Assembly: GCA_951406725.2 (NCBI GenBank)
Contig: OX597815.1
Location: 57,908,001-57,972,000 of the forward strand
Origin: Octopus vulgaris
Taxonomy: Eukaryota
Length of the DNA: 64,000 nucleotides
Reading direction: 5' to 3'
Shown here: in pieces, positions 31,843 to 54,219 of the stretch
Layout: every line of letters begins with the position of its first letter
Position numbering within the stretch: the first letter of the stretch is position 1
Position numbers and translations under genes: made by a program
Notes under the pieces: model-generated
Database searches by the model: none
What the model was told of the DNA's origin: nothing
Seen by the model: only the letters and a program-made list of their open reading frames with translations

Positions 31843-32750
31843 CAGGGTGTCCATAAAGTCTCTTTGCAATTTTAAAATTTTATTACAAAGGTAATTGACA
31901 AGATATCTTAACCAGATTTATTTTATTGTAATAATTGTTTATTAAAGTTTTTCAACTGTTATTCAATAGACCTCAATATGGGCACCATTAGTTGCCTGAA
32001 GCACATCAAGACAGTACTCGATTTCTTGCCATGTTCGCTGTAGGATAGCCTCATCAACGGTGGTAATGGCATTACGAATCCTTTGCTTTAAGTCAGCAAT
32101 ATCCCGTATCTTTGTTTGATACATGATATCTTTTACATAACCCCATAAAAAGAAGTCCAATGGAGTGATATCTGGCGAATGCGGTGGCCATGGAATTGGC
32201 CCATACCTTCCAATCCATCGGTCTAAAAATGTTTGATTGAGGAACTGACGAACATGCCGTCCCCAATGTGGTGGTGCACCATCTTGCTGGAAAATAATGG
32301 TTGATTGTAAATCAATCAGTTGTGGTGCCACATATTCAGTCAGAAGGTCAAGGTAAACATCTGCAGTAATTGTTGCCTCGTTCAAGAAAAATGGACCAAT
32401 TATTCAATTGCACATGATTCCACACCACACATTCATTTTTGGACTATCCCGTTGAAGCTCTCTAGTCACATGGGGGTGTTCTGATCCCCAGATTCTCACA
32501 TTGTGTCTGTTTAATTTCCCTGAAACATGAAAGTCACCTCATCACTAAAACAAACTCGCTTGAGGAATGCTTCATCCTCATTTTATAGGGTTTCAGTGAA
32601 TCAGTTCCCTTCCATCAACAGAGTAAGTGAAACACAAAGATTTAATATCAATAAAAACTTATTAAAATAAAACAAATCTGGTTAAAATATCTCATAAACT
32701 GCCTTTGTAATAATTTTTTTAAATTGTAAAGAGACTTTATGGACACCCTG
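31843..32750 (-). mobile_element. Internally deleted DD41D (rosa/VS-type) mariner-like transposon
   Basis: TIRs CAGGGTGTCCATAAAGTCTCTTT.. with TA TSD; FSDE, FQQDGAPPH, WPPHSPDITPLDFFLWG; 41 residues counted between the second and third Asp. Confidence 0.9.
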
Positions 32751-32937: not shown

Positions 32938-34007
32938 AAAAATAATAGTTAAATAAATAAGCAAATAGAGTTAAACAATATTTATTTAAAAATAAATAAA
33001 ATAATAATTTTTCTTATAGAAGAAACTCCATTAACTAAATTTGAAACTTAAAACATTAGGATTAGTTTCCATCAACACATTTATTATTTTAAATATTTAA
33101 TATTTAAGGTAAAAAAAAAAGTACAGTAAATAGATAGAAATATGTATTTATCTGCAAAGATATAATTTAGCTTAAAAAAACATTAATAAACTATAGAATA
33201 TCTTTAACCCAATTATACTCCAATATTTAATTACCAAATTATTTAACAAACTAATCACTATTAATATTTTTAGATTTTAGTTCGCATATAATAATTATAA
33301 AATAATAAATACATAAAAATAAGTATCTAAAATATAATCAACAAATATAGTAATTAAAAATCTAAATTTTTTCTATCAATAACCGTATAAACATATAACC
33401 AAAAATAAATTAGTCCATTATTACTTACATAAATATTACTGATATCTATAGAAAATATCTATGAAATACAAAAATTGAAAAATTCAAATTAAAAATATAT
33501 AACCTATCTTTATAAAATACTTATTATTACTACTATCAAAAACATTTTTATGATCTGTATCGCAAAGTTACTAACTAATATCTTAAAATTTACGTTCGGA
33601 TATAATAATTATAAACTAATAATAATTAAATAAATGTACATATCTAAATTATCATTAACAAATAAAAAAAATTATAAATTCAAATTTAACAATCAATAAT
33701 ATTTCTTAAATAAAAAAGTTTACTTATCTCTCAAAAAGCGTGTCATTAACTAAAAAACTTCAAAACGGAAAATGTCTTAAGTGTTTATAAAAACTCGTGG
33801 AATTACATTATTAACAGAAATAGAACAAACAGATGGAAATATACATTTTATCAATGAAAACTACGAATATATTTTAGCTTTAATGGATAAAGAGAATAAA
33901 GTCACTAATAGAGAATAGAATCACTCTACACTATAATGTCTTTCACTATAAAACTAAAATTTAGAATTAACTACGATAAATTATACTCAAAACTCTATAA
34001 ATTGAAA

Positions 34008-34503
34008 TCTATATATATAAAACTGTAGTTGTGTGAGTGTCTGTCCCCTTCGATTTAGATTCCTAACTACTCCCACATTTTGCGGTGCAGTTTAACCAAA
34101 TTTGGGTATCTTATAGTCATGATTCATATCGAGCCCGTCTGGGTATTAGTGCACGTCTACGATGAGTCTACGATTTTAAAAATAATTTAACATCATTTTT
34201 TATTCCATTTTAATGCATAATTTTTCGTGTGTCGATGGCGGCGGAGTTGGCGTCCATGGTCACACCTGCACCTGTTTGCTTCTCCCCCTTCTTCCCTCCC
34301 TCGTGAAGCTGTGGGGAAGGGAGTGTAAGGAAATCAACGTCGTAAAGCGTTGTCAAGGAGACCAGCGTTCTTTTAGAACAACGACTTCATGGCTTGAAGA
34401 CACCAAAACGGAAATGGCTAAGAAAGCCCGAATTGGCATCTATAAAAATGCTTATATAGTTATTTCCCTTACAAACCCGAGCAACGCCGGGCGATACTGC
34501 TAG
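34008..34503 (+). mobile_element. Non-autonomous Helitron
   Basis: 5' TC, 3' CTAG preceded by hairpin CCCGAGCAACGCCGGG, inserted between A and T, no TSD. Confidence 0.8.
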
Positions 34504-35279
34504 TAATTTATATAACTACTATTTACTGTATATTCTCTAATAATCTTATACAAATTAATTTATTTCATATATATAAATATGATTATGTTGGAGCCAAATC
34601 TTTATTTAAAGAAAACAACTTTTACACACATTCTATATTAACTCAGTGCTAATTCAATCAGTATCTATATTATAGCTACTAATTAATAAACTTAAGTTAA
34701 TTTAAAAACTATAATGTAATTAATATTCATTAATAAATAATATTAATTAATTAAATAAACATCTAAATAAATCTAATTTGAAATATATAATATAAATACA
34801 TTTTGATTAATATATAAAAAAAGTTATTACAAACTATATATTACAAACTGTCATTTATAACAAATATATATTATATATCATATTAATCTTCAAAACAAAT
34901 GCTAAAATAATAAATTAAACTTATATAAGTAAAGTAATTTATATTTAAATCAAATACTTCGCTCATTAATTGAATAAATAAAGTACATATTATCATTATA
35001 AATAAATAGTTCATAAAGAAAATATTTTTTTACTACATATTCAAAATTATTTATTTAACATTACTAAAACTATTACCATAAAATATATATATACTTAATA
35101 CTATTAATGTTAATTGTTATCGCCATATTAATATGGCATTCTTATAGATATAAGAATAATCGCTGCCGCTGGTCAGCTCCATGAGGCCACCGCCATCAAG
35201 ATAGCTATTGATACACGATCTGTATCCATTATAACCTTCGAACAAGGGAGGTCAGCCGCTTCACACTGCCAGTCCGACA

Positions 35280-35321
35280 GCTACAGACGCGTTTTGGGGT
35301 ATTGCCCCTTGTTAATGTAGC
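35280..35321 (-). ncRNA. Hammerhead copy in the inverted unit (G5A and G12A, probably dead)
   Basis: Minus: GCTACA-TTAACAA-GGGG-CAATA-CCCC-AAAA-CGCG-TC-TGTAGC. Confidence 0.7.
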
Positions 35322-35479
35322 GCAGTCAGACACGCAGGTATCGCCACTGACGTCTCTGTTCGAAGGTTTCTATTTACCTAGTTTCTATTATTGAAAACAA
35401 GTGGATGCATTTCACTGAAACTAGGTAAATAGAAATCTTTGAACAGAGATGTCAGTGGGACACCTGCGGGTCTGACTGC

Positions 35480-35521
35480 GCTACATTGACAAGGGGCAAT
35501 ACCCCAAAACGCGTCTGTAGC
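35480..35521 (+). ncRNA. Hammerhead copy 1 (G12A)
   Basis: GCTACA-TTGACAA-GGGG-CAATA-CCCC-AAAA-CGCG-TC-TGTAGC. Confidence 0.75.
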
Positions 35522-35844
35522 TGTTGGACTGGCAGTGTGAAGCGGCTGACCTCCCTTGTTCGAAGGTTATAATGGATACAGATCGTGTGTCAATTGCTAT
35601 CTTGATGGCGGTGGCCTCATGGAGCTGACCAGCGGCAGCGATTATTCTTATATCTATAAGAATGCCATATTAATATGGCGATAACAATTAATTTTCAGTA
35701 AACGCTGACGTAATCTCTTTTATAGAGACTTAGTAATTTTAATATTTCTATTATTGAAAACAAGTGGATGTATTCCACTGAAACTAGGTAAATAGAAACC
35801 TTCGAACAGAGACGTCAGTGGCGACACCTGCGGGGTCTGACTGC

Positions 35845-35886
35845 GCTACATTGACAAGGGGCAATACCCCGAAACACGTCTGTAGC
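35845..35886 (+). ncRNA. Type I hammerhead ribozyme, U3-A8 core variant, copy 2
   Basis: GCTACA-TTGACAA-GGGG-CAATA-CCCC-GAAA-CACG-TC-TGTAGC; predicted cleavage after C35880. Confidence 0.85.
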
Positions 35887-36209
35887 TGTCGGACTGGCAG
35901 TGTAAAGTGGCTGACCTCCCTTGTTCGAAGGTTATAATGGATACAGATCGTGTATCAATAGCTATCTTGATGGCGGTGGCCTCATGGAGCTGACCAGCGG
36001 CAGCGATTATTCTTATATCTATAAGAATGCCATATTAATATGGCGATAACAATTAATTTCCAGTAAACGCTGCCGTAATCTCTTTTATAGAGACTTAGTA
36101 ATTTTAATATTTCTATTATTGAAAACAAGTGGATGTATTCCACTGAAACTAGGTAAATAGAAACCTTCGAACAGAGACGTCAGTGGCGACACCTGCGGGG
36201 TCTGACTGC

Positions 36210-36251
36210 GATACATTGACAAGGGGCAATACCCCGAAACGCGTCTGTAGC
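36210..36251 (+). ncRNA. Type I hammerhead ribozyme, U3-A8 core variant, copy 3
   Basis: GATACA-TTGACAA-GGGG-CAATA-CCCC-GAAA-CGCG-TC-TGTAGC; predicted cleavage after C36245. Confidence 0.85.
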
Positions 36252-36290
36252 TGTCGGACTGGCAGTGTGAAGCGGCTGATCTCCCTTGTT

Positions 36291-37075
36291 CATCATCATC
36301 ATCATCATCATCGTTTAGCGTCCGCTTTCCATGCTAGCATGGGTTGGACGGGTCAACTGGGGTCTGTGAAGCTGGAAGGCTTCGTCAGGCCCAGTCAGAT
36401 CTGGCAGTGTTTCTACGGCTGGATGACCTTCCTAACGCCAACCACTCCGCGAGTGTAGTGGGTGTTTTTTACGTGCCACCTGCACAGGTGCCAGACAGAG
36501 CTGGCGAACGGCCATGAACGGATGGTGCTTTTACGTGTCACCGGCACGGGGCCAGGCGATGCTGGCAACGGACACGAACGGATGGTGCTTTTACGTGCCA
36601 CCGACACGGGGCCAGACAGAGCTGGCAAACGGCCACGAATGGACGGTACTTTTACGTGTCACCGGCACGGGGGCCAGCCGAGGCTGGCAACGGACGCGAA
36701 CGGATGGTGCTTTTACATGCCACCGACACGGTTGCCAGACAGAGCTGGCAAACAGCCACGAGCGGACGGTGCTTTTACGTGTCACCGGCACGGGAGCCAG
36801 CCGAGGCTGGCAACGGACACGATCGGATGGTGCTTTTACGTGCCACCGACACGGGGCCAGACAGAGCTGGCAAACGGCCACGAACGGATGGTGCTTTTAC
36901 GTGCCACCGACACGGGGCCAGACAGAGCTGGCAAACGGCCACGAACGGACGGTGCTTTTACGTGTCACCGGCACGGGGTCAGGCGAGGCTGGCAACGAAC
37001 ATGAACGGATGGTGCTTTTACGTGCCACCGACACAGGGCCAGGCTGAGCTGGCAAACGGCCACGAGCGAATGGTG
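36291..37075 (-). mobile_element. RTE family A 3' UTR-only insertion (~10 repeat units) inside retrozyme unit 3
   Basis: Near-identical to the 3' UTR at 16-1170; splits CCCTTGTTC|GAAGGTTAT with a short (TG)TTC duplication. Confidence 0.92.
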
Positions 37076-38384
37076 TTCGAAGGTTATAATGGATACAGAT
37101 CGTGTATCAATAGCTATCTTGATGGCGGTGGCCTCATGGAGCTGACCAGTGGCAGCGATTATTCTTATATCTATAAGAATGCCATATTAATATGGCGATA
37201 ACAATTAATTTCCAGTAAACGCTGCCGTAATCTCTTTTATAGAGATTTAGTAATTTTAATATTTCTACTATTAATGTTGGTAGGCATATAATAAGCATAA
37301 TAGTAATAACAATATCAATCACAAAAATTAAAAAAAAAATGAAATAACTATCTTTTAATCTATATTCATTAAATAAATTATATATTTAGTAATTAAATAA
37401 ACATCTAAATATAACCTAACTCTATTTAAAAAAACCTTTACTAACTCTTATTGACTTATATTCAAATCACCTACAGAAGTGCAATCACAACACTACTATA
37501 ATTAATTAATTAATTTAATAACAAATATTAATTTAGACTTATTAAATTATGTAATATACAATATATAATCACATGCTAAATTATAGAATAAATACTAGTA
37601 CAAAATATAACTACAAATAAGAAACAAAAATAGGGTTTAAATATAGTCACTATTTATCTAAAAATTTATTATATAAGTAAAGTAATTTGTGTCTACATTT
37701 AATTTTACACTCATCCAATGAATTAACTAATTTATGATTATTAAATAATATTTCTTTAAATTCACTAATACATAAAAAGTATAGGAATTACTACCTATAC
37801 TATATGATTTCACCTTGCAAATTATCTCCCATTTTAAATTATGCTTAATTCGTTGAGATTTAAGTTCCCATATGTATTTGCTAAGCCCAGTAGAGTTAAT
37901 AAGATTTCTATTCTTAAAGGAATGTATATGCTGAGCTACTCTTAATTTAATTTTAGAGGAAGTAGACCCTATATAGATAGCATTTAAGTTATTATTATTC
38001 CTATTATTCACATTAATTAAAGCTACCATAACATTTATAAACAACATCATGTAAATTACATTTATTATTAAATTACTATTACTTTTATCTGTACATGTAC
38101 AATCTATCAGTATGTTATCTTTATTATTGTTGGTATGATTATAAAATTTCGTTTTATAAAAATTATTCAACTTAAATTTGTCAAAAGAAGAAATAATGTT
38201 AGTTACATTATTAGTGGTAGAATAACCAACTCCAAAATTATTACTAGAGAAAATTTTTTTATAGTTACGATTATTATGAATGAATTCTTCGATAATATTT
38301 AAAATCTCTTTAATAATATTAGTTTTAACTTGAGCCCCATAAGGAACAATTAACCAAATTTTATTCATATTAGTTATATTTTTA

Positions 38385-38422
<38 letters not shown>

Positions 38423-38954
38423 ATTAACACTACTATTATTAATATTATTATTATTATTATTATTATTATTACTACTATTTTATTATTATTATCATAATTA
38501 TATTTCTTTTTAATGTTATTAAAATTATTATCATTTATTGAATTAAAATTAAAATTATCATCATTTATTGAAATAAATTCAAATTAAAATTAGTCTTATT
38601 TCTATTTTTATTTATATTTATATTTATGTTTTATTATTATTATTATCATCATCAATACTGTTATTATTATTATTATTATTATTACTACTACTATTACTAC
38701 TATTATTGTTATTATAATTATTATAATTGTTATTAATATTATTATTGTATCCTGCCTCTCGCAGGGCTTCATTATAATAAGGTGCATGTTTATTGAAAAT
38801 CTCTAAATCATAACAAAATAATGATATTCGTTTACTAGTATTATTTAGCAACGATTTTTTACTTGATGGTGGGTGATTACTATTAGCATTTATATATCTA
38901 AGGTTTTCATTAAATTTATATGGTTGGGTTTTACCTGTTGATATATATATATAT

Positions 38955-41941
38955 TCAATGGTCACGTTGGATGACATACTGGGGCTTCCATGGTGTACAT
39001 GGAGGCTATGGCTATGGTTCCCGCAATGAGGAGGGAACCAGGCTGCTGGAGTTCTGCGATGCAAATGATCTTATGGTTTGCAACACTAACTTCAGGAAAC
39101 CAACCAGCCACCTAGTCACCTACTGATCGGGCCAACATACCAGCCAAATTGACTACATACTTGCCACGAAAAGGGAAAGCTGGCTGCTTATAAATGCCAA
39201 AACCTTCCCAGGCGAAGACTGTACCCCGCGACATAGACTGGTAGTTAGTGAATTTAGGATCAGGACTAAGAGGACAACCAGAAGACGACCAACATGGAGA
39301 AGAAGGATCTGGAAGCTTAAAGATCCTGCGAATGGACAGAGATTTAGGGACATGTTACTTGAAGCCTTTGACAAAGTAGAAGGGGACAGAGTATCACATG
39401 GGATAGAAGGCAACTGGACGTTTCTAAGGGACAACCTGCTGAGAGCCACTGGCCAGATCTGTGGATGGTACAAAGTCCCCTCTCGTCCCAAGGTAACATG
39501 GTGGTAGAACAATGTTGTAGACAGGGCTATTAGAGAAAAGAGACAGGCTTGGAAGGACTGGAAGAATGCTGGTAGCAAGGAATTGTATCAGACTGCCAAA
39601 GGGAAGCTAGGAGACAGGTCTATCTAGCCAGAGGGGAAGCAGATAAGAAAATATTTGCCAATGTTCTGCGCCGTGAGGACCAAAGACTGGAGGTGTTTCG
39701 TGTTGCAAGACAGTGTGTGAGAGAGAATCGTGATGTGGTAGGAGAGAAATGCGTTCGCATGGAAGATGGTTCACTTGCGCTAAATGAGGATGCAAAGACA
39801 GAGGTTTGGAGACGCCACTATGAAAGGTTGCTGAATAAAGAAAATGAATGGGATAAAGAGAGTCTGCCGAATGTCGACCCAACAGAGGGACCAGCTATCC
39901 GAGTTGACAGTTCCTTGGTAGTTAAGGCAATTAGAAGCATGAAGACAAGGAAAGCCCCAGGCCCATCAGGAATCACTGCAGAGATGCTCAAAATATCTAG
40001 TAGTGTTGGCTATAGCCTAGTCACCCGTATAGTTAATCAGGTGATACACGAAGGAGTCATACCCAATGACTGGTGTAGCAGCATAATAGTCAACTGCTAC
40101 AAAGGTAAAGGTGACGCCCTAGATACAAATAATTACAGAGGTATCAAGCTGTTGGATCAGGTAATGAAGGTTACAGAGAGGGTCATAGCCCAACTAATTA
40201 GAGAGGGAGTTAGTTTAGATGAGATGCAGTTTGGGTTCGTGGTAAGGCAGCTGCAGGAGAAATACCTAGCCAAAGATAAGCCCCTGTACCTGGCTTTTGT
40301 TGACATGGAGAAAGCCGTCGACAGGGTCCCCCGATCCCTTATCTGGTGGTCAATGAGGAAACTAGGGATAGATGAATGGTTAGTGAGAGCTGTGCGAGCC
40401 ATGTACAGGGACGCTGCTAGTAAGTTGAGGGTTGGCAACGAGTACAGTGAAGAATTCCAGGTAGAGGTAGGGGTCCACTAAGGCTCAGTCCTCAGCCCCC
40501 TCGTATTTATCATAGTCCTCCAGGCAATAACGGAGGAATTCAAGACAGGATGCCCATGGGAGCTCATCTATGCTGATGACCTTGCTCTAATTGCTGAGTC
40601 ACTATCAGAACTGGAGGAGAAGTTTCAGGTGTGGAAGCAAGGATTAGAATCGAACGGCCTTAGAGTCAATCTAGCTAAAACCAAAGTCCTAATAAGTAGG
40701 AAGGTAGACAAATCACAAACGCCTTCAGGTAGATGGCCCTGCTCGATCTGTAGAAAAGGTGTAGGTAGAAACTCTATAAGATGCACCAAGTGTAAGCTAT
40801 GGACACATAAGAGGTGCAGCAATGTCAAAGGAAGGCTAACTAGGAAGATAGTTTTCGTATGTGGCAGATGCTCAGGAGCAATAAACACTGAAAATGCTCA
40901 GAGACCAACTTCTGCCACATTCCAGGGAGAAAAACTTGAAATAGTTGATAGCTTCCGTTACCTAGGTGACCAAGTCACCTAGGTAGCGGGGGCGGGTGTG
41001 CTGAAAGTGTAACTGCTAGAGTAAGAATAGCTTGGGCAAAGTTCAGAGAGCTCTTACCTCTGCTGATGACAAAAGGCCTCTCGCTCAGAGTAAAAGGCAG
41101 ACTGTATGACGCATGTGTACGAACAACCATGCTACATGTCAGTGAAACATGGGCCGTGACTGCTGAGGATATGCGTAAGCTTGCAAGAAATGAAGCCAGT
41201 ATGCTCCGATGGATGTGCAATGTCAGTGTTCAAACTCGACAGAGTGTAAGTACCTTGAGAGAAAAGCTGGACCTAAGAAGCATCAGTTGTGGTGTGCAAG
41301 AGAGACGTTTGCGATGGTATGGTCATGTGGCAAGAATGGATGAAGATAGATGTGTGAAAAAGTGCCACACCCTAGCGGTTGAGGGAACCTGTGAAAGAGG
41401 CAGACCCAGGAAAACCTGGGACGAGGTGGTGAAGCATGACCTTCGAACTTTAGGTCTCACTGAGGAAATGACTAGAGATCGAGACCTTTGGAAGTATGCT
41501 GTGTGTGAGAAGACCCAGCAGGACAAGTGAGATCATAACCCCTGTGGCCTCTACACGGGATGTAGCCAGTCCACTTATGCATACCTTTCCTTCTTGGGAC
41601 ACAAAACTCTCCTTGTGAAGACCTGTTGAGACATGTGAGAATCGAAATCGATCAACATCAATGGAAATTGCAGCTGTGATACTAGTGCCGGTGGCACGTA
41701 AGAAAACCATATGAACGTGGCCATTGCCAGCGCCGCCCCAACTGGCCTCGTGTCGGTGGCACGTAAAAAGCACCCACTACACTCGCAAAGTGGTTGGCAT
41801 TAGGAAGGGCATCCAGCCGTAAAAACATTGCCAGATCCTACTGGGCCCGGTGCAGCCTTCTGGCTTCCCAGACCCCAGTTGAACCGTCCAACCCATGCTA
41901 GCATGGAAAGCGGACGCTAAACAATGATGATGATGATGATT
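38955..41941 (+). mobile_element. Longest RTE family A copy (EN C-terminal part, RT, PHD insertion, 3' UTR, tail)
   Basis: RNEEGTRLLEFC, SQIDYIL, KAPGPSGI, NYRGIKLL, YADD, PHD, RRLRWYGHV; stops and small indels. Confidence 0.92.
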
Positions 41942-41942
41942 C

Positions 41943-41955
41943 CTATATATATATG

Positions 41956-42006
<51 letters not shown>

Positions 42007-42021
42007 ATGTATATATCTATC

Positions 42022-42099
<78 letters not shown>

Positions 42100-42106
42100 T
42101 AGATAT

Positions 42107-42182
<76 letters not shown>
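41943..42182. repeat. (TA)n/(CA)n microsatellite forming the centre of an inverted duplication
   Basis: Direct reading; (GT) run on the left, (AC) run on the right. Confidence 0.9.
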
Positions 42183-42183
<1 letters not shown>

Positions 42184-42390
42184 GGAATCATCATCATCAT
42201 CATTGTTTAGCGTCCGCTTTCCATGCTAGCATGGGTTGGACGGTTCAACTGGGGTCAACTTGGGACACAAAACTCTCCTTGTGAAGACCTGTTGAGACAA
42301 GTGAGAATCGAAATCGATCAACATCAATGGAAATTGCAGCTGTGATACTAGTGCCGGTGGCACGTAAGAAAACCATCCGAACGTGGCCAT
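42183..42390. repeat. Local rearranged duplicate of the adjacent RTE 3' end
   Basis: 42183-42257 inverts 41872-41945; 42258-42390 directly repeats ~41593-41724. Confidence 0.85.
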
Positions 42391-42407
42391 ATATATATAT
42401 ACATATA

Positions 42408-42429
<22 letters not shown>

Positions 42430-42448
<19 letters not shown>

Positions 42449-43137
42449 CTGAGAATGTGTGTCTGTCTGTCTGTGTGTTTCCCTAAAACTTGAGAACCAC
42501 ACAACCAATTTCATTCAAATTTTACACATGCCTTACTTAGGGTCCGGGGAGTGTCATTTAATTTTTTGCCTAGGGCGAGCCCACAGCAATATCATATCTT
42601 CTCCACTACGATTCCCTAAAACTCGAGAACTACACAACCAATTTCATTCAAATTTTACACATACCTTACTTAGGGTCCATGTAGTTTCATGGGCAAAAAA
42701 ATGTTCAACTTCTTGCCTAGGGTGAGCCCATAGCAATATCATATCTTCTCCACTATTTCAGTATTACGTGTTAAAAGTGAAACAAAAACGTTTCTCTATT
42801 TTATGTCAGATACTTTCACTTTAACAATAAAAATAATAATAACAATTGAATAATATGTAGTAAGTAATAATTAAAATCAAACTAAAGTATAATATAATCG
42901 TAACATAACAAAAGTAAAAATAGCTATTGGTATAAAATTGCATCAATGACTTGAACTTGAATAAGTGGTTTCACATGAATGGGAATAAATTAAAAATAAA
43001 ATTCGTGTGCAGAAATGGAATAGTCCAGATGGATAATAAAAAATTAAATTAAAGAAAAGACTATTGTCTATAAAGTATACAATGTAGAGAAAAAAGATTA
43101 GAACACATGGAGGAAAGCTATTTTTGCGTCTGTTAGT
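42430..43137 (+). mobile_element. Possible Helitron-like non-autonomous repeat with internal ~135-bp duplication
   Basis: TATATAAAGCTG..GTCTGTCTGTCTG start; TTCCCTAAAACT..CAATATCATATCTTCTCCACTA occurs twice; 3' end unclear. Confidence 0.35.
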
Positions 43138-43224
43138 AAGTTTATATATTTTGCTCTCATAGTATTATCTCTGTTTTTCTATATTGTCTGTATACCTGTT
43201 TGTTTATTGTTGTTTAACTGAAGA

Positions 43225-46200
43225 AGTCAGCCTTCACGCGAGGACTTCGCGTTGGTGTTCCCCCCTCCGTGGGGGAAAACTACAATTATTTTGGAATCTC
43301 CAAAGGCTTGTTAAAGCCATTTGTTTAAGATGGAATCCCCCATCTCCTATTCGCCCGTGACGAGCGAGGACGAATACCCGAAAAAATTCGCTGAAGTAGC
43401 TGGGAAAAAAATTAAAACAATAACCGTTGAAAATCTAGAAAAATTTGCAGACAGTGTAAAGAAAGAGGGCACGGAAGTGACTGTGGTCGCAGATGTACAG
43501 AAACATGAAGATATAGAGAGGAAAAGAATTATTTACAAAACGTACAACACAGCTACAAGAATGATTCAGAAAATCGAGGAGAAAAAAATAGAGTTATGTT
43601 TGAAACCAATAATGGACAAAATAACATATATAAACAGAGGTAAAAGATACGGCACAGTGGAAGTGCGTTTTACCTCTGAAGAGATAGCGAAAAAACTATC
43701 AATGGAGACTTTCAAAGCAGAAAACATCATTCTATTACCATTATATAGAGGAAAGCGGACATCAAAAATCACAATGAACAACATTCCCCCAGAGGCAGAG
43801 GCAGAATGTCTGGTGGCAGCAGTGATGGTAGGCCTGGAGGAAAAAATAAACATCCTCCAGGCCACAGTGGAAGAAGAAGAGTTCTGGAAAGGACAAAAGA
43901 TAATGATAGCCATTCAGGCGGAGACACAAACACTGGAAGAAATTCCAGAAACAGTAAAAATTAGCGAAGAGGAAAAAATAACTGTTTTCGTTGAGGGCAG
44001 GAGGCCGAGGTGCTTCGGCTGCGGCAAGAAGGGTCATGTAAGGGCGGAATGCCAACCCCAACCCAAACCGCAGGAAGCACCGAAGCCAAGAGAAAAAGAA
44101 GTGTCACCAGAAGCAACGTCGGACGGCCCAGAAGGGAAGATCGAAGGTGTGGAGGTGACGGTGACAGCAGAACCAGCGGCGGAGGAGAACAAGAGTGAGG
44201 AAAAGATAAATGAGGAGGGGTGGAAAAAAATTACCGAAAAAAAAAAAGAAAAACGGATACCACCCCTCCCAGAATAATTTTAAAAAAAGAAGAGAGAGAC
44301 AATGGACTCATATATGGCCGTAAAGGCAGCGAATAGCAGACTAGGAAACGTGTTGGCTGCTATGGCCAAGGTGGAGAAAGTGGAAAAGAAAAATGACTTT
44401 GTGATCTACAGAATAGGCCGGAAGGATTACGGGCGGATAAAATCTGAATTCTTCCACGACGTAGGCCCACTTAGATTGGAGGTGACATCTCCACATATAT
44501 TCGAGGGCCTACGTCAGACTCCCCCACGAGGCCCAGAAAAAGAGTTGGAAGAACGAGAGAAAACCGAACCACTGATATAAAGGTAAGTAATGGATTGCAT
44601 TTATGTTGGTTGTTTGAATGTGCGCGGCCTGGGAACAGGCTGGAAGCAAGGTCGCTTCCTGCATGATATCAGATCGCGTAATTTAGATGTTATTGTTGCT
44701 ACAGAAACCCGGTTAGAGGGGCCAAGAGGTCTGCTCCCGCTGTTTGACGGCTACGAGAGTTTTTTCTCTCCTGGCAGTCCTACTGGCGGAAGTGGGGTGT
44801 TGGTCCTAATAAAAAGAAACCGGGTTTCTGAGAAAAAGTTAATTTTTGCAGATCCAGAAGGTAGGCTGGTCGTCATGGATTTGACGTTCAGTAATGGTAA
44901 AGTTATCAGACTGGTTGCAATTTACGCACCCAACCATACAGGGCAAAGTGATTATTTTCGTGAACTAGAAAACTTTCTTGGTACTTCGCATTCATTAGTT
45001 GTGCTAGGAGACTTTAACACAATTTGCAAAGTGGATGTAGATTGTGTTGGCTCGCGTCCAGATAGAAAAGGTAACAGTGGTTTCATGGAACTGCTAAGCC
45101 GCTTTGAGCTAGCAGATCCTTATAGGCTGGAATTTCCGAACGCTCCATTGTGGACATGGTCAAACAGCGACGGATCTTCCAGGTCATATTTAGATAGAAT
45201 ACTAATTAGAAAAGTAGACAGTAAAATAGCTAAGTGTCCACAGTTTTACCCGATCAGCTACAGTGATCATAAAATGGTCACTTGTAAGCTTGACATAGAT
45301 AAGGTTAAAAATAGAGGATCCGGTTACTGGAAACTTAATACGTCCCTTTTGGCGATTAAGGAGTACAAAGACCGGATTAGGGATATAATTCAGAGGGCAC
45401 TATCTGGTACCATCATTAATAACAAATGGTGGTACGCCCTCAAACGAGCCATCAAGTTTGAGTCTATTAGATATAGCATAGGAGTAGTGGCTAGAGAGGC
45501 TAGAAGGGAAACTACTCTAGTTAAGGAATTAGAGGAAGCCATGAAAACTGGCTCTGCGGCTCAGGTGGCGTCCAAGAGACTGGTGTTAAACCAGCACCTC
45601 GAGGCCAAACATATGGGCTGCATTGTCAGGGCTAGAATCCGCCATATGGAATGTGAAGGAATCAACACCGTGAGATGGGCCTGAGTGGTGGAAGCACAGC
45701 ATGGTAACGATGCCACGATTCGATCTTTGACGAACCAACAAGGTGAGTTGATAAACGAACCCGAGGAGATGTGTGAGGCCTTTCAGGAGCACTTCGCTCA
45801 GCTTTTCGGTGAGTGCGGCGGACTGGATAGGAGGAGGGCCTTTACGGACCTACTCGACGGGCTGCCGCGCTTATCGGGGTGAGATGCAGAGGGCTGTGAA
45901 GGGCCAATCACGCCTGAGGAGGTGGTTGAGGCAATGGCGGACTGCGGCGCGGGCAAGGCGCCGGATTTGGATGGTCTACCCTATGAGTTATATAAGAGTA
46001 TGCCAGACTTGTTCGGGCACCTACTGGCGGAGGTCTATGTGAACTGGCAGCAGAACGGGCTTATACCCAGATCTGTGCGCCGGGGAGTAGTGACTCTCGT
46101 CAGAAAGGACCCGAGCAAGGGGGAGTGCATTGATAATTTCAGGCCCATCACTCTGCTAAACACAGAGTTGAAGATTTTGGCCAAAGTGTTATCGAAAAGA

Positions 46201-46870
46201 TTGGCGTGTGTCACGGATGGTCTGATCGGAGGGGCACAGACATGTGCCGTTCCGGGCAGATCCATTCAGGATAATCTCCATCTAATGCGGTACACTATAG
46301 AGGGGTTTAATAGTGATTCTGGCAAGGGTGGGGCACTGGTCCATTTAGACCAATCTAAAGCTTTTGATAGGGTTGACCATCGTTACCTGGTATCTGCCCT
46401 GGCACAGTTCGGGCTGAGCCTTGGCTTCCTCAGGTGGATTATCCAAATTTATGATAACATCGACTCGGTAGTTCGGGTGAACGGCTTCTTGTCGAAGCCG
46501 TTCAAAATCAAACGCTCGGTTCGTCAAGGATGTCCGCTCTCCCCGCTTTTGTACGTGATGTCTAGAGCCATTTCTGCGAAAACTGAGCGGCATCCCGAGA
46601 CAGCCAGGTAATGGAAAATCAGTGTCAGCGTACGCGGATGACATCACCATCATCGTAACCGAAATGGACCACCTATGTAAAGTAGGCAAGGCCATAGAGG
46701 TTTACGAGACGGTGACAGGAGCAAAAGTCGCGAAAAGTCAGTCGGCTTGCAACTCAGCACCTGGAGAGGCAAGTCGATGCCTCCTGACAGCGTCGTGGGA
46801 CGTTGGACGGAGGGTCCGATTAAATTGCTAGGGGTCTGGTTCGGTCCAGACCTCCAAATAGAGAAGAATT
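43225..46870 (+). mobile_element. Tx1/L1-clade LINE, 3'-truncated
   Basis: ORF1 with CCHC knuckle; ORF2 LNVRGL, ETRL, IYAPN, GDFN, YLDRI, SDH, GYWKLN, FRPITLLNT, LDQSKAFDRV, VRQGCPLSPLLY, YADD; in-frame stops. Confidence 0.9.
43321..44277 (+). CDS. Tx1-like ORF1 (Gag-like, zinc knuckle)
   Basis: CFGCGKKGHVRAEC (CX2CX4HX4C) directly upstream of the APE-RT ORF; likely ATG at 43330. Confidence 0.8.
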   Translation: MFKMESPISYSPVTSEDEYPKKFAEVAGKKIKTITVENLEKFADSVKKEGTEVTVVADVQKHEDIERKRIIYKTYNTATRMIQKIEEKKIELCLKPIMDKITYINRGKRYGTVEVRFTSEEIAKKLSMETFKAENIILLPLYRGKRTSKITMNNIPPEAEAECLVAAVMVGLEEKINILQATVEEEEFWKGQKIMIAIQAETQTLEEIPETVKISEEEKITVFVEGRRPRCFGCGKKGHVRAECQPQPKPQEAPKPREKEVSPEATSDGPEGKIEGVEVTVTAEPAAEENKSEEKINEEGWKKITEKKKEKRIPPLPE

Positions 46871-47093
46871 TAATGCTAGTATATATATATAGATAAAACT
46901 TACTTTGAAGAGGATGCGTGGCATTTCGGCAGTCCGTTTCCACGGTTCTGTTTTTATGATTTTGTTTCTCATTGTGTTCAACGTTTTTTTTGGTGTCCTG
47001 TACTATATATGCATGTATATATACATATAGATGTAGGTACATACATATATGTATGTATATATGCATGTTTTACTTATTATTTTGTTATATATA

Positions 47094-47164
<71 letters not shown>

Positions 47165-47184
47165 GTGTGTGTATATATATATGT

Positions 47185-50100
47185 AGGAAGACAGCAGTCA
47201 TCAACACCGAATTGAAAAGGCTGAACATCGACATAGCGGCGCTGCAAGAGACCAGGCTCGCCGCAGACGGCATGCTACGGGAGAAGGACTACACCTTCTA
47301 CTGGCAGGGGAGACCCGTTGAGGAGGCCCGCCAGCATGGCGTGGGGTTTGCTGTGAGGAACAGCTTGCTCCCCATGGTGATCCCTCCTTCAAATGGCTCA
47401 GAGCGCATCCTCACTCTTAACCTTGCAACATCAATGGGGAAGGCAAGCATAATTAGTGCTTATGCCCCAACACTCCACTCTCCTCAGGAAATAAAAGACC
47501 GGTTCTATGAGGAGCTCGACGCCACCATCAGCCAGATACCAGGGTCGGAGCCCATCTTCCTTCTGGGCGACTTCAATGCAAGGGTGGGATCCGATCATGG
47601 GGCATGGCCAGATTGCCTTGGACGCTTTGGCATGGGGAAGGTGAATGAGAATGGCCAGAGACTGTTGGAGCTTTGCTCTTACCGGAAACTCTGCGTTTCC
47701 AACACATTCTTCATGACTAAGCCGCATCACCAGGTCTCATGGAGGCACCCAAGGTCCGGACACTGGCACCAACTGGACATGGTCATCACCCGGCGAGCCC
47801 ACCTCGGCAGTGTGCTTCTCACATGCAGCTACCATGGTGCTGACTGTGATACAGACCATTCTTTGGTGTGCAGCAGGGTCCGATTGGCCCCAAAGAAAAT
47901 CAACCGTCCCGTAGGGAAAAGCCGACCACGCATCAACACCGCCAGGACAACCAACCCCGACCTCCGCTCGGAATTCACCAACCGCATGGAGGAGGCCCTT
48001 AAAGATCACGCAGCCACGTCCATCGAGGAGAGATGGCAGATTATTCGCGACACCACTTGCAGAATAGCCATGTCATCCCTAGGAAAGAGGGAGCGGAGAA
48101 ATCAAGACTGGTTTGAAGCTCACCTGCCTGAGATGGAGCCTGTCATTGCTGCCAAGAGGGAAGCACTGGTCAACTATAAGTGCGACCCATCAGAAAAGAA
48201 CCTGGCTACTCTGAGAACAGCCAGAAGCGACGCCCAGAGGACGGCCAGACGTTGCGCCAACATCTACTGGCAGAACTTATGCCAGAACATCCAGTGCTGT
48301 GCTGACAGTGGTAACGTGAAAGAGATGTACGAGGGGATGAAGAAAGCATTCGGGCCCACTGTCAGAAAGGTTGCTCCACTGAAGTCCAGAGATGGCGAGG
48401 TCATCAAGGACCAAGCGAAGCAGATGGAGAGGTGGGTCGAGCATTACCAGAACCTCTACTCCACTGAGAATGTGGTCACCAGGTCTGCCCTCGCCGGCAT
48501 TCCTGCTCTGCCTGTCATGGAGGAGCTTGACCTGCCTCCAACAAAGGAAGAACTGAGCAAAGCAATTGACTCACTTGCTCGGGGCAAGGCACCAGGGCAA
48601 GACGGCATCCCCACAGAAGTCATCCAGTGTGGGAAGCCAGCCCTTCTGGGCTATCTCCACGAGCTGCTCTGTCAGTGCTGGGAGGAGGGCTCTGTCCCTA
48701 AGGATATGCGTGACGCAAACATCATCACACTGTATAAAAACAAAGGGGACAGAAGCGACTGCAATAATTACAGGGGCATATCACTGCTCAGTACTGTCGA
48801 TAAGGCATTTGCCAGGGTGGTCCTGAAGAGGTTGCAAATACTTGCAGAGCGTGTGTACCCCGAGTCTCAGTCTGGCTTTAGGGCAGAGAGGTCTACAATT
48901 GACATGATCTTCTCACTCAGGCAGCTTCAAGAAAAGAGTCGAGAACAGAGACAGCCCCTATACGTGGCCTTCATCGACCTGGCTAAGGCGTTCGACTCAG
49001 TCAGCAGGGAGGGGCTGTTTGCGCTCCTGGGTAGGATAGGTTGCCCTCCCAGACTGCTGAAACTCATCACCTCCTTTCACGACGGTATGCAGTGCAGTTT
49101 GACGGATCGCCCTCGGCGTCATTCCCCATCCAGAGTGGAGTGAAACAGGGTTGCGTTCTGGCGCCGACGCTCTTCGGAATTTTCTTCTCCCTTGTCCTGT
49201 CCTATGCCTTCAGAACGTCCGACGACAGAGTGTTCCTCCACACCAGGGCTGATGGTGGATTGTTCAATCTTGCGCGCCTCAGAGCTAAGACCAAAGTCCG
49301 TCAGGTGCTGATCAGAGAGATCCTCTTTGCTGACGATGCCGCCCTAACATCACACAACCAACCGGGTCTCCAGAGGCTGGTCAGCTCCCTGGCGGATGCC
49401 TGCCAAGAGTTCGGCCTTACCATCAGCCTGAAAAAGACAGAGATCATGGGCCAGGACGTCGGAGGGGTCCCCAGCATCAGTGTCGGCGACCACAGCTTGC
49501 AGGTGGTGAACGAGTTCACTTACCTGGGATCGACGGTCTCCAGCAGCCTGTCCCTCGAGCCGGAGCTGAACAGACGGATTGGGAAGGCTGCTGCTGCCAT
49601 GGCTAAGCTCTCTAGGAGAGTGTGGGAAAACAACATGCTCACAATAACCACCAAGATCGCAGTGTACCGAGCCTGCGTGCTGAGCACCCTACTCTACGGC
49701 AGCGAGAGCTGGACAACATACACCCCGCAGGAATGCCGCCTCAGCGGCTTCCACATGCGGTGTCTTCGACGGATCCTTGGCATCTCCTGGAAGGACCGAG
49801 TACCAAACGGAGTCATACTGGAGCAGACTAATATGCCAAGCATGTATGCCCTCCTCGTGCGGAGACAACTGCGCTGGCTCGGACACGTCTGCCGCATGCA
49901 GGATGGTCGCATGCCTAAAGACATCCTGTACAGCGAACTCACCATGGGATCCCGACCCAAGGGATGTCCACAGCTACGATACAGGGACGTGTGCAAGTGC
50001 GACCTGAGGACTGCCAACATCTGTGTGGACACGTGGGAGGAAACAGCTGCTGACCGCTCTGCCTGGCGTCGGACGGTGAGGAAAGGCGTTTCCATGGCTG

Positions 50101-50311
50101 AGGAGAGGAGAGCACAGCTGTGGTTGGACAGGCGGGACAGGAGGAGGACAACTGCAGCAACACCCCACACGTACCCATCGATGTTCGTGTGCAGCAAGGA
50201 CTGCCACTCTAGAATTGGACTGTTCAGTCACAGCAGACGCTGCACATCATCAAAGTAGGCCCCACCCTTGGTGCAACCCATTGTCTATCAAGACAGATGG
50301 GAATAAAGAAA

Positions 50312-50312
<1 letters not shown>
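47185..50312 (+). mobile_element. RTE-BovB-like LINE, nearly complete ORF with one frameshift (~49095)
   Basis: IAALQETR, GVGF, AYAPT, GDFNA, TDH, NYRGISLL, QSGFR, GVKQGCVLAPTLF, FADD, FTYLGS, C-terminal HSRIGLFSH..C; 5' start lost in a microsatellite. Confidence 0.92.
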
Positions 50313-50367
<55 letters not shown>

Positions 50368-50379
50368 TCTTTTTTCTGT

Positions 50380-51090
50380 AGTTTTAGCTCAGAGCTGCGG
50401 CCATGCTGATGCACCGCCATTTTGCTACACTGTTATTACTGTGAGCCTCTACATGTTCTTTGTGCAGGTTCCTCAGGCTCTTTGGGAGAATATTAAAAAG
50501 CTGTGGGCCTCTGAAACCCAGGCTATGGTCACCCAACAGTATAAAATTAACATCGGTCCTTAAAGCAATCCAGTCAATCTTCACAAAGAAGATCGACTCT
50601 TTGCAACAGCTCAGCTAATGGGAAAGGTTGAAATAGCTAAGACTCTACTCCCTAGAGCAAAGGCAGGAGAGATATGCAGTAATACACATCTGGAAAATCC
50701 TGGAAGGAACTGGTAAAAATTTTGGTATTGAAAGCTACACCAATGTCAGAAGAGCTGGACAGTGCCAAATATCTCAGCAATGCCATCACACTTCAGGACC
50801 AGTTACAGCAACAGCGTGGGTTTTAGGGGACCACAGCTTTTTAATATTCTCCCAAAGAGCCTGAGGAACCTGCACAAAGTAGATGTAGGCATTTTTAAAT
50901 CACAGCTGAACCTCTTCCTGTTGAGAGTCGCAGACGAACCAACCTCACAGAAAAAGGTGCAAATGAGAGTAGATACATCAAACTCCATTCTACACCAAGT
51001 GCCACAAATTAGAGGAGGATCTCAGGAATAGCACTGCAGCAAAACAGTGGTGCTCCAGCATGGCCACAGCCCTGAGCTGAAACAGCAAAA
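50380..51090. mobile_element. CR1/L2-group 3' fragments in back-to-back orientation
   Basis: GFRGPQLFNILPKSLRNLH on both strands; tails at ~50385 (minus) and ~51060 (plus). Confidence 0.8.
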
Positions 51091-51109
51091 AATATATATG
51101 TAATATATA

Positions 51110-52005
51110 TAATCAAACATAAGCAACAAGAATATCCTCGGTAATTTGGTACGATCGTTTCACGCTACATCATTTTATTAAATATTGCAGGTATTACAAC
51201 AGTTTTTAAATATTGAACAATCATCAGCCACTTACAGAGGTTTTCCATTAATACATATTTTCATATTAATTGATAACATTATAGAGAAGGTAGATATATA
51301 GACAAAGATGTCGATTTGAATTTTAAGAATATTAAGGTAGTAGAGTTTATCTTCTGACTGAAGAATATTCTTAAAGTTGTTTTGAACTGCTAGAAGGTTG
51401 GGAAGTATAATCAGTTGAAAGGAGACAAAAGAGATTTTCTATTTATAGAAATAGGGGTGAAATAAATGTCAGAAGCTATTCATAAACAAATTAAAGTAGA
51501 GAGGGGGTTATAATGCCCTAGAAGCTGTTTACTACTATAAAGTTATTGGTATAAACTTTTTGGTATATAGGTGGTCATTGTGACCATCTGACATTGACCT
51601 AGTTTTCTTGATACAAAATCTGTTTGCCAAATAGTAGTAAAACAGCTTCTAGGGTATTATAACCCCCTCTCTACTTTGATTTCTTTATGAATAACTTCTG
51701 ACGTTTTTTTGGTGTCCTGTACCCATATATGCATGTATATATACATATAGATGTAGGTACGTACATATATGTATGTATATATGCATATGTTTTATTTATG
51801 GATTTGTTATTATATGACGGAACGCAGGCATTCATTTCTAAGTAGGTTTTATCTCAATATATATATGTATATATTATATATATTACATATATATATATTA
51901 AATTAGAGATAAAACCACTATCATGCAAGTCATACTATAAAATTAAATTTAATCCTAAATCTAATTTTTCCCTGTAAGTTTGGATTTACTCCCAAATATT
52001 ATTAT
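51110..52005. mobile_element. PLE pseudo-LTR-like fragments with ~75-bp inverted repeat
   Basis: 51462-51537 is inverted at 51632-51705; 51701-51790 matches 46981-47070; TTAGAGATAAAACCACTA terminus as at 31751. Confidence 0.45.
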
Positions 52006-52008
52006 TAT

Positions 52009-52009
<1 letters not shown>

Positions 52010-52097
<88 letters not shown>
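52010..52097. repeat. Pure (TA)n microsatellite
   Basis: Direct reading. Confidence 0.97.
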
Positions 52098-52099
<2 letters not shown>

Positions 52100-52103
<4 letters not shown>

Positions 52104-54120
52104 CTTAGATATGTTTCGACCAGAGATTGGTCCAGGCCATGTCTAACTTAATAGCACCACCTGATAGGATTATTCGAATCCTGTTTAAGTCAAGTTTTGT
52201 TCAAGTAGTGAGTTCTTGTTGGGTGAGTTGTATCCAATTATGGGTGGCTTATCTGGTATTCTTTGAAGGAATCTATCCAGACTCTGTTTAAAGTTGATGG
52301 GATCCTTTTCCTCTTTGATCTCACTCGGGACAATGTTAAATAGGGCAGGGCCTGTTGAGGAAAAGAAATTATGTTGCAGTGTACATGTATGTTGTGATCT
52401 TGAATTTGGCAGGGGACATATAGCCCGTGGTCCAAGTCTTGGATGAACCTTGAAGCTAATGTTTAGGTCGTTTGGGCAAAGTTGGCGGTATATTTTCCAC
52501 ATCGTACAAATGATGTACCGCTCATGGCGACGCTGGAGGGAGTAAAGTTTCAAGGCTTTAAGGCGATCCCAATAATCGAGAGCAGCCATGCCTTCAATTT
52601 GTTTAGTGAGAGCCCTCTGGGGTGACTCAATTCTGGAGATGTTTTGTCTTGTGTGAGGAGACCACAGTGGGCAGCAGTATTCAAGGTGTGGCCGTACAAA
52701 GGAGGAAAAAGTGGTATGATGACACCTTGTTCTCTGGACGGGAAAGTTCTTAAGATCCAGGAACTCATCCTACGAGCTATATCGACCTTCTTGTTGATGT
52801 GTGCACTCCAACTGAGATCATCATCAACAATTACACCCAGGTCTCTGATATTGTTAGAGGCTGTGAGCGGTTCCCCTGAAGGAAGAGAGTATGGTTGTTT
52901 TAGTGAGGAATTTCTTCCAAAATGCATCAGCTCAAATTTTCCCTCATTCAGTTGCATTTTGTTTCTGTCTGCCCATTGACTCACAGCATATAGATCAGAC
53001 TGGAGTTGAGTTCGGTCTGCTTCTTCATTGACGATTTGCTGGAGCTTAGTGTCATCAGCGAATATTTTCACTTTGCAGTGATGTACGACACTGGAAAGGT
53101 CGTTTACGTAAATTATGAAGAGTAGCGGACCCAAAACAGTTCCCTGGGGAACACCGCTGGTGACTTTTGCTGGGTTTGAGCGGACTCCATCAACTACAAC
53201 ATGTTGTGTTCTATTCGCCAGGAAATACTGAATCCAGTGTAGAACTTTTCCACGGATTCCAACATTTGCCAATTTTGAGAGAAGGATGTTATGGTCTACC
53301 CTGTCGAATGCTTTACTGAAGTCAAGATATATGACGTCAGAGTTCGAACCTGTTCCCAAGGCTTTGAGTACATCTTCAATGTGGTGTAAGAGCTGTGTTA
53401 GACAGTCCCTGCCACAGCGAAAGCCATGCTGATTTGAATTTAGGAGTTTGTGGTTCACCAGGAAGTCAGCTATCCTTGATCTTAACACTCTTTCAAACAC
53501 TTTAATGATGTGGGAGGTGAGTGAGATTGGGCGATAGTTGACTGCGAGGGATCTGTTTCCCTGTTTGAAAACCGGGATGACCGACTGGGATAGAAACTGT
53601 TTCGGTATATAACCTGCGTCTAACGAGTTTCTCCAGAGGTTGGTCAGAGGGACTGCAAGTTGATATCTACATTCCTTCAGGAGACTAGCGGGAAATCTAT
53701 CAGGGCCTACAGCAGAGTAATGTTTGACCTCATTTATTGCTGCTATGATGTCAGTGGCAGTGAAGGTTATGTCTGCGATTTTGTGTTGGGAGTCAACTTC
53801 GTTCGTTTCCCTCACGTCAATATCAGTGGGAACACTGAAGACAGAGCAGTATTGTTTCTGCAGTATTTCTGCCATTTCTTTAACATCGTGTTGGGGAATG
53901 CCGTTATCATCAATGAATGGCCCAATGGGTGAGACAGTGGTTCTATGCTTATTTGCATAAGAATAGAACACTTTTGGGTTCTGTTTGATGTTTTTGATTA
54001 CCCATTGTTCCTCCACAGCTCTTTGATTTTCAATGGAGGTTTTCATGTTAGTCTGCAGATGAAGTTTTTCCAGCTCTAGTCTTTTCATTGTTGTTGAATG
54101 TGGATGTTGTGTGTGGGAAT
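52100..54120 (-). mobile_element. Second CR1/L2-group family, RT region nearly intact
   Basis: ORF 52550-54088 with YRPISLTS, QHGF, YLDFSKAFDRV, SGVPQGTVLGPLLF, FADDTK, RDLGV; frameshifted C-terminus; hairpin tail ending GAAAC. Confidence 0.92.
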
Positions 54121-54219
54121 ATTTTAATTGGTTGATTTTTTTTTTTTTAATAATATATATATATTATATATATATATTACATATATATTAAATATATATA
54201 TATCAAAATAAAATAAAAT

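Follow-up and report, generated by a model that had tools for sequence, protein, structure and literature searches.

A tandem block inside a Penelope-like relic

Positions 35112 to 37265 of the window (the whole 64,000-nt stretch of octopus DNA that was analyzed) are occupied by a block of three head-to-tail units, preceded, as the initial annotation had stated, by a partial unit in inverted orientation. The parts of the block are given in Table 1, in which positions within a unit (q1-365) are numbered according to unit 2 of the window. The same 13-mer, TACTATTAATGTT, is found at both sides of the block and had been taken to be a target-site duplication (TSD). It is a true duplication, arising from insertion of the element into the surrounding sequence, because three paralogues of that sequence (L303, L313, and L299) agree with it in both the left and the right flank and have the 13-mer once, i.e., as an empty site. 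The sequence that hosts the block is an old Penelope-like element (PLE) relic of the Hydra clade, lying on the minus strand. Both flanks belong to the one relic, which resumes to the left of the element at 34500-35098.

Table 1. Features of the block and of the sequence around it. Positions are those of the window; q refers to positions within the reference unit.
Feature	Positions	Strand	Remarks
TSD, left copy	35099-35111	+	Single-copy empty site in L303, L313, L299
Inverted arm, q~32-306; outer end is fixed site B; core with G5>A and G12>A	35112-35385	-	
Unit 1, 363 bp; hammerhead core 35486-35515 with G12>A	35386-35748	+	
Unit 2, 365 bp; site B near 36057, site A at 36113	35749-36113	+	
Type I hammerhead of unit 2; helix III palindrome broken; predicted cut after 35880	35846-35885	+	
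Unit 3, 5' part, q1-178; core 36216-36245, ACGCGT intact, one helix I mismatch; predicted cut after 36245	36114-36291	+	
Later foreign insertion: LINE/SINE 3' end, (GAT)n tail, 61-bp repeats, 3-5 bases duplicated	36292-37078	-	Not element
Unit 3, 3' part; ends at fixed site A (..TAATATTTC)	37079-37265	+	
TSD, right copy	37266-37278	+	
Host site: broken Hydra-clade PLE relic, GIY-YIG region about 37730-38000	37279-38980	-	Not element

The lengths of 363, 365, and 365 bp initially ascribed to the three units hold for the first two. The third is interrupted at q178 by a foreign repeat of 787 bp, which had escaped mention, and it measures 365 bp only on paper, with the foreign sequence discounted. 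The foreign repeat consists of (CAT)n and ten 61-bp repeats, derives from an abundant LINE/SINE, and is 92% identical to positions 14-800 of the window. Related sequence lies behind a LINE open reading frame (RT and PHD) at 17513-18193.

Each unit had also been described as carrying a hammerhead. The stems and hairpins then listed are present, as are C17 cut sites after 35880 and 36245, but an intact ribozyme is not to be found in every unit. Judged from its sequence, the window copy is a decayed member of its family, because unit 1 and the inverted arm have mutated cores, the palindrome of unit 2 is broken (it reads ACACGT), and helix I of unit 3 contains a mismatch. Cuts at the two predicted positions would release a 365-nt monomer, as had been supposed, but such release is doubtful from a copy so degenerate. 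The inverted arm and unit 1 have two variants in common that are missing from units 2 and 3, and these discordant variants may come from conversion between neighbors or from a second template.

A dispersed non-coding family and its hammerhead

The genome assembly that was searched contains 2.8 Gb in 227 contigs. An exact 24-mer from the unit (q4-27) matches it at 1,555 places (its reversed control at none), and for 1,401 of these matches (90%) the sequence ahead of the match is the 3' end of the unit itself. A 29-mer of the window's subfamily has 562 matches, and ribozyme cores with U3·A8 number 1,462. A core pattern one position longer, representing a loop-length subfamily, has 37. The matches include many scattered tandem copies, from dimers to five or more units, with TSDs of their own, which bears out the proposal that the element is independent. 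By these counts the family is dispersed, and it is young as well, since an array of five units shows one difference.

The unit itself (365 nt, 42% GC) is non-coding, the longest ATG frame on its sense strand encoding 21 amino acids. No extension common to the 49 5' flanks and gaps was found, except for abundant host repeats. The initial annotation had raised the prospect that the monomer might always be attached to a coding PLE; the sampled copies, compared with four PLE families, stand without a coding parent. Contigs from four sequencing runs of presumed RNA type cover 22-26 of 29 bins and are silent on strand, ends, and circles. The element is likely a family of non-LTR retrozymes, mobilized in the Penelope-like manner.

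The hammerhead of the unit is of type I, with helix I (CTACA/TGTAG) atop a long stem, the core TTGACAA, helix II (GGGG/CCCC), GAAA, ACGCGT, and C17. The core (UUGACAA...GAAA) has U3·A8 in place of C3·G8, and helix III consists of two base pairs plus the palindrome ACGCGU, as in hammerheads of the dimer type. The same exchange, together with a short palindromic helix III that acts in dimers, is described for the hammerheads of Schistosoma PLEs (PMC4209133). Rfam gave no family at the gathering score anywhere in the 64-kb window and no hammerhead family within 35100-36300 even at E<=10. Its hairpin matches in the latter interval arise from the inverted junction and were set aside.

Across the family, 169 of the 185 segments that span the motif have an intact core, and position N7 varies among the 185 (C in 124, A in 52, T in 6, a gap in 3). 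Folding of the monomer had been suggested as a check, and from cut to cut it folds at -131.5 kcal/mol (z -7.35), far better than its shuffles, none of 100 being as good. A predicted co-fold of two copies forms a double hammerhead with a helix III of six pairs, and neighboring hammerheads are predicted to pair in this way, via the palindrome, and to cleave as dimers. Covariation was examined in 13 units from subfamilies that are 82-100% alike. Double changes occur at 8 of 96 predicted pairs, as compared to 0-2 in slid controls, and none of 500 shuffles reached so high a number. Helix I appears in the different subfamilies as CTACA/TGTAG, CTGCA/TGTAG, and CTGCA/TGCAG, and the oldest subfamily has ACATGT as its palindrome instead of ACGCGT. 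Compensatory change thus looks to have kept the long stem as well as helices I and III, suggestive of selection on the RNA, with the covariation to be taken as support and not as proof, because these 13 related sequences also served to derive the structure.

Insertion anatomy and the nature of the template

From 220 fetched loci I obtained 163 unique blocks that are not cut by the edge of a locus, a block split by a later insertion being counted twice. Long arms are overrepresented, since part of the sample was picked by similarity to the window unit. The blocks comprise 268 arms, and their 3' ends fall mostly at two places about 55 nt apart: 130 at site A (q360-365, with TATTAT often coming next) and 113 at site B (q298-320, centered near q309), leaving 25 that end elsewhere. 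Of the 80 simple blocks that have two arms and an assigned type at either end, 78 consist of an A arm and a B arm head to head, and two are A+A, as compared to the 50% A+B expected if the arms chose their ends independently (p 2e-21). Typing by the outermost ends gives 80 A+B, 2 A+A, 1 B+B, and 17 with an untyped end, young and older subfamilies behaving alike. The least biased subset, consisting of blocks fetched by position, contains 23 A+B and 1 A+A among 51.

A majority of the copies are short, at a median of 463 bp, and consist of two arms, which are joined mostly by overlaps of a few bases. The longest arm extends for 2,015 nt and contains nothing but repeats of the unit. TSDs of 12-15 bp were found in all 15 two-armed insertions whose site is complex enough to be read, and 215 of 263 outer 3' ends lie at TA or TAA repeats, as compared to 109 of 1,027 background 40-mers. 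In the PLE signature described by Craig et al. (2021, PMC8557442), the tandems are partial, one copy is inverted and 5'-truncated, the tail is often present at a single end, and the targets are (TA)n. The octopus unit shares this architecture, in that it has a partial tandem, an inverted 5'-truncated arm, a tail at one end, and an AT-rich or microsatellite target. The insertion had been attributed from the start to a Penelope-type process, and the two fixed 3' ends, the head-to-head arms, the TSDs, and the targets agree with this.

What was copied to make these arms can be approached through the predicted cut site. It is passed by 153 of the 243 typed arms (130 once, 18 twice, and 5 three to five times) and by 32 of 76 arms in the least biased subset. 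Nowhere in 118 segments is there an insertion or deletion in the region of the cut (q125-146). If reverse transcription stopped at the cut site, 5' ends should accumulate there, but the excess proved weak: 15 ends at q130-145, as compared to 9.4 expected (p 0.05), with stronger hot spots at q161-180, q256-270, and q331-340. Owing to this excess, some templates may be cleaved linear RNA.

Segments of the same insertion diverge by 1.8-2.1% and those of different insertions by 3.0%. At six polymorphic sites, haplotypes agree in 232 of 241 comparisons within an insertion (96%), as compared to 58% between insertions. Opposite arms agree in 149 of 152 comparisons and tandem units do likewise, the window copy being an exception. 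Private variants were found that are carried by all covering segments of one insertion (12 variants) or by one segment only (112 variants), and six of the former 12 involve tandem units of a single arm. Because haplotypes and private variants are shared in this way, both arms stem from one haplotype, with one unit apparently read repeatedly. A circle explains such repeated reading most simply, and I consider a circular template a reasonably good bet. Reverse transcription around a circle, as the initial annotation had it, is thereby favored, both by the scar-free passage of the cut site and by the sharing of haplotypes, but an uncleaved multimer, made from a homogeneous source array, could also be passed without a scar and is weighed below.

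Candidate helpers, mechanism, and relation to known systems

PLEs that might serve the unit were sought in the same genome. A search for GIY-YIG sequences, in which 150 of 6,136 candidates were scored, led to three families, A, B, and C. Family A has a Neptune-like open reading frame of 781 amino acids with RVT_1 and GIY-YIG domains and the Neptune-type C-x-C Zn-linker, open in 16 of 148 matches. A second search, with the PLE relic adjacent to the block (150 of 15,863 candidates scored), led to a Hydra-like family, E, with open frames of 822-862 amino acids in 9 of 150, assignable to the Hydra clade by its motifs (DKT, CxCx5C). Further families may exist, since only 150 candidates were scored in each search. 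Both the intact Neptune-like and the intact Hydra-like PLEs are candidate helpers.

Families A, B, and E all have a hammerhead and, downstream of it, two alternative 3' ends, located at (TA)n. Alignments of the unit and its termini with families A, B, C, and E did not rise above those with shuffled sequences. The oldest subfamily and the ribozyme of family A have in common the core words TTGATAAGG...GAAACATGT, and the cores of families B and E use C3·G8. The link between the unit and family A is suggestive only, because much of the hammerhead core is fixed. Some other resemblances did not survive scrutiny. The termini of family E look by eye like sites A and B, a likeness equaled by 36-124 of 300 shuffles, and a 20-nt AT-rich antisense match within the family E frame (E 0.025-0.3) was treated as chance. 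In one locus (L050), a 221-nt fragment of family E lies between the two arms, as if synthesis had switched templates to the mRNA of a helper. The best match of the fragment (96%), however, is a relic 1.3 kb away, which makes capture from nearby equally likely. Finally, the proteins of families A and B matched 13 of 256 element loci by tblastn (about 10 places), one of which (L183) was judged from its sequence and the others from their coordinates.

That the element is non-autonomous and mobilized by a PLE I regard as very probable. The fuller reading that I prefer, and consider probable, is that of a non-LTR retrozyme with two fixed 3' ends, for which a PLE primes synthesis on both nicked strands, the template probably being a circular RNA monomer. 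A tandem copy would be transcribed, neighboring units would form the double hammerhead predicted from fold and covariation and cut out an RNA of unit length, and a host ligase would close it to a circle, by analogy with published retrozymes. Presumably it is a PLE protein with RT and GIY-YIG activities that would then nick both strands of AT-rich or (TA)n DNA with a stagger of 12-15 bp, the spacing and preference being those seen in the TSDs and the target bias. Priming on a single template would take place at site A (q365, plus TATTAT) from one DNA end and at site B (q~309) from the second, consistent with the observed one-A-one-B rule and the shared haplotype. The cDNAs would be of variable length, often longer than one unit, and would be joined head to head by short overlaps like those observed. 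A more specific version I put forward only tentatively: a PLE dimer carrying out rolling-circle, target-primed reverse transcription on one ribozyme-made circle, with strictly one of two different fixed sites for each strand, the Neptune-like family being both the helper and the source of the U3·A8 core. Each insertion would then be a pair of cDNAs from a single circle, fused head to head.

The unit may instead be a PLE passenger copied from an uncleaved linear multimer, transcribed from tandem sources, with no circle at all and with the hammerhead kept for some other step, e.g., 5' trimming or a late cleavage assisted by protein. This I think rather unlikely, but it has points in its favor. 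Uncleaved RNA is the dominant substrate of a studied Poseidon enzyme, PAc (PMC11167929), arrays of at least five units are available as sources, and both the scar-free passage of the cut site and the discordant units of the window would be accounted for. It fits less well with the six private variants common to tandem units of one arm or with the several haplotypes, each uniform within its insertions, because of which repeated copying of one unit is needed at some stage. Moreover, arrays copied from linear sources could only shorten, and compensatory change preserves the long stem along with helices I and III. Should the enzyme copy cleaved linear monomers and make tandems by jumping from 5' to 3' end, on the same RNA or another, the slight excess of 5' ends near the cut and the 9 discordant comparisons of the 241 within insertions would find an explanation. 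None of 118 segments has an indel at the cut site, however, and jumps between molecules would mix haplotypes that are in fact 96% concordant, and so I give this scheme very little weight.

I judge equally improbable the reading in which a coding PLE has the unit as its ordinary pseudo-LTR and its 5'-truncated insertions make up the dispersed copies. It is true that coding PLEs have the same two-site ends and targets, that the oldest subfamily shares its core words with the intact family A, and that a fraction of PLE copies was scored in each search. Nine-tenths of unit heads, however, follow the unit's own tail, even the longest arm holds unit repeats only, the 5' flanks and gaps have no extension in common beyond host repeats, and no homology of the unit to the pLTRs of the four families was found. 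The adjacent PLE, furthermore, is a relic interrupted by the element, and its paralogues have the empty site.

The preferred reading, a PLE-primed retrozyme with a probably circular template, adds to what has been suggested already. Retrozymes have been proposed as passengers of PLEs (PMC7229834, PMC7761336; bioRxiv 10.64898/2026.07.22.740005), and the making of circular templates by PLE hammerheads has been proposed as well; no direct demonstration of either was found in the accessible portions of that literature. The class is thus known. As far as the literature searched is concerned, which covered few subscription papers, no description was found of the octopus family or of a strict one-site-per-strand rule in a retrozyme. 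The family is young and large, in a genome with intact candidate helpers, and a small in vitro test is well defined, since its ends give exact priming sites. The one-A-one-B rule is a clean genomic constraint on second-strand synthesis by PLEs. If the rolling-circle version with a Neptune-like helper were true, it would provide a defined pair of helper and passenger bearing on the role of PLE hammerheads and on the movement of retrozymes.

At the level of its DNA, by which it is known here, the unit would qualify by its features as a metazoan non-LTR retrozyme (PMC7229834, PMC7761336). Like those of coral, mussel, and axolotl (Cervera and de la Peña 2020, PMC7229834), it is a tandem non-coding unit in the range of 150-450 bp (350-390 bp in mussel), with one type I hammerhead per unit, GC below 50%, TSDs longer than 4 bp, a highly self-paired monomer, and PLEs in the genome. 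Unlike them, it has the U3·A8 core and a palindromic helix III of two base pairs, closer to PLE-type than to canonical invertebrate motifs, and it occurs mostly as short two-armed insertions with two fixed ends. Neither such end anatomy nor a motif linking unit to helper was found in the retrozyme descriptions accessible in PMC7229834 and PMC7761336. The vertebrate retrozymes of Li, Clavereau, and Pollet (2026, 10.64898/2026.07.22.740005) are of the same proposed class, tandem hammerhead repeats moved by PLEs. In Xenopus the evidence is co-occurrence and pLTR homology, whereas in octopus it is insertion anatomy, no pLTR homology to a coding PLE having been found. Eight of nine Xenopus retrozyme dimers did not cleave in vitro.

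A coding PLE for comparison is PAc, a Poseidon element of the green anole (Frangieh et al. 2024, PMC11167929). On AT-rich DNA its purified enzyme makes nicks in both strands and extends each of them. It begins reverse transcription at two internal sites downstream of the hammerhead, which define a "tail" of 30-40 nt, and the ribozyme is dispensable in vitro. The octopus unit likewise has two sites downstream of its hammerhead and an AT-rich target, but it is non-coding, its sites are about 55 nt apart, and they are used one per strand. Non-autonomous, multicopy, head-to-tail elements related to Chlamys PLEs exist as well, e.g., MRC1 (PMC8557442). These have a helper-like 3' end and no canonical hammerhead, the reverse of the octopus unit, which has a hammerhead and no detectable homology to a helper's 3' end. 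The Cercyon PLEs of Schistosoma (Cervera and de la Peña 2014, PMC4209133) share with it the core swap, the dimer palindrome, and the model of a circle, but their hammerheads are mostly single motifs in truncated coding PLEs, whereas the octopus unit stands alone, non-coding, with a long covarying stem.

Layout of Hydra-like and Neptune-like insertions

The layout of the retrozyme, in which one arm ends at one fixed site and the opposite arm at another, is common to it and two autonomous Hydra-like insertions (L329 and L337), where the inverted arm stops at an upstream site and the forward arm about 85 nt beyond. The Hydra-clade Penelope-like (PLE) relic in the window is disrupted by stops and several younger insertions. 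A genome search for its family returned 15,863 first-look candidates, and some copies have open frames of 822–862 aa, which Pfam did not recognize. Hydra-like sequence also occurs within a retrozyme locus: at L050, the two arms are separated by 221 nt of GIY-YIG sequence (L050:847-1067), which best matches a relic located 1.3 kb from it in the opposite orientation.

The Neptune-like PLE at L111 encodes an RT/GIY-YIG protein of 781 aa, with an ORF1 of about 350 aa upstream. Its hammerhead is of the U3·A8 form, and its alternative 3' ends lie about 36 nt apart. At L072, a PLE of the Neptune-like family A and a retrozyme occupy a single (TA)n tract, tail to tail.

Features in the window and at the Neptune-like locus
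Feature	Position	Strand	Remarks
Old PLE relic	33000-38980	minus	Hydra-clade, AT-rich
Several broken LINE ORFs	39576-54163		endonuclease + RT; PHD finger in some
Transposase-like fragment	31963-32403		weak DDE_3 match
Abundant repeat	36292-37078, 14-1225, 18668-19052		(GAT)n tail, 61-bp tandem units
Young Neptune-like PLE	L111:430-5700		ORF1, RT/GIY-YIG ORF, hammerhead, two 3' ends

Units of the window copy

Unit 1 (35386-35748), the partner of the inverted arm, carries 12 differences from its neighbors, as compared to 3–4 for the other units. Half of the 12 are C>T, several of them outside CpG. Unit 3 was the target of an insertion by the (GAT)n/61-bp repeat. Since this repeat also follows a LINE ORF with RT and PHD finger (17513-18193), it probably represents either the 3' end of the corresponding LINE family or the SINE of that family.

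Unit sequence in runs of four organism labels

Words of the retrozyme unit were found in runs of four organism labels (up to 0.70, 0.28, 0.63, and 0.60 of the words), which suggests that related species may carry the family.
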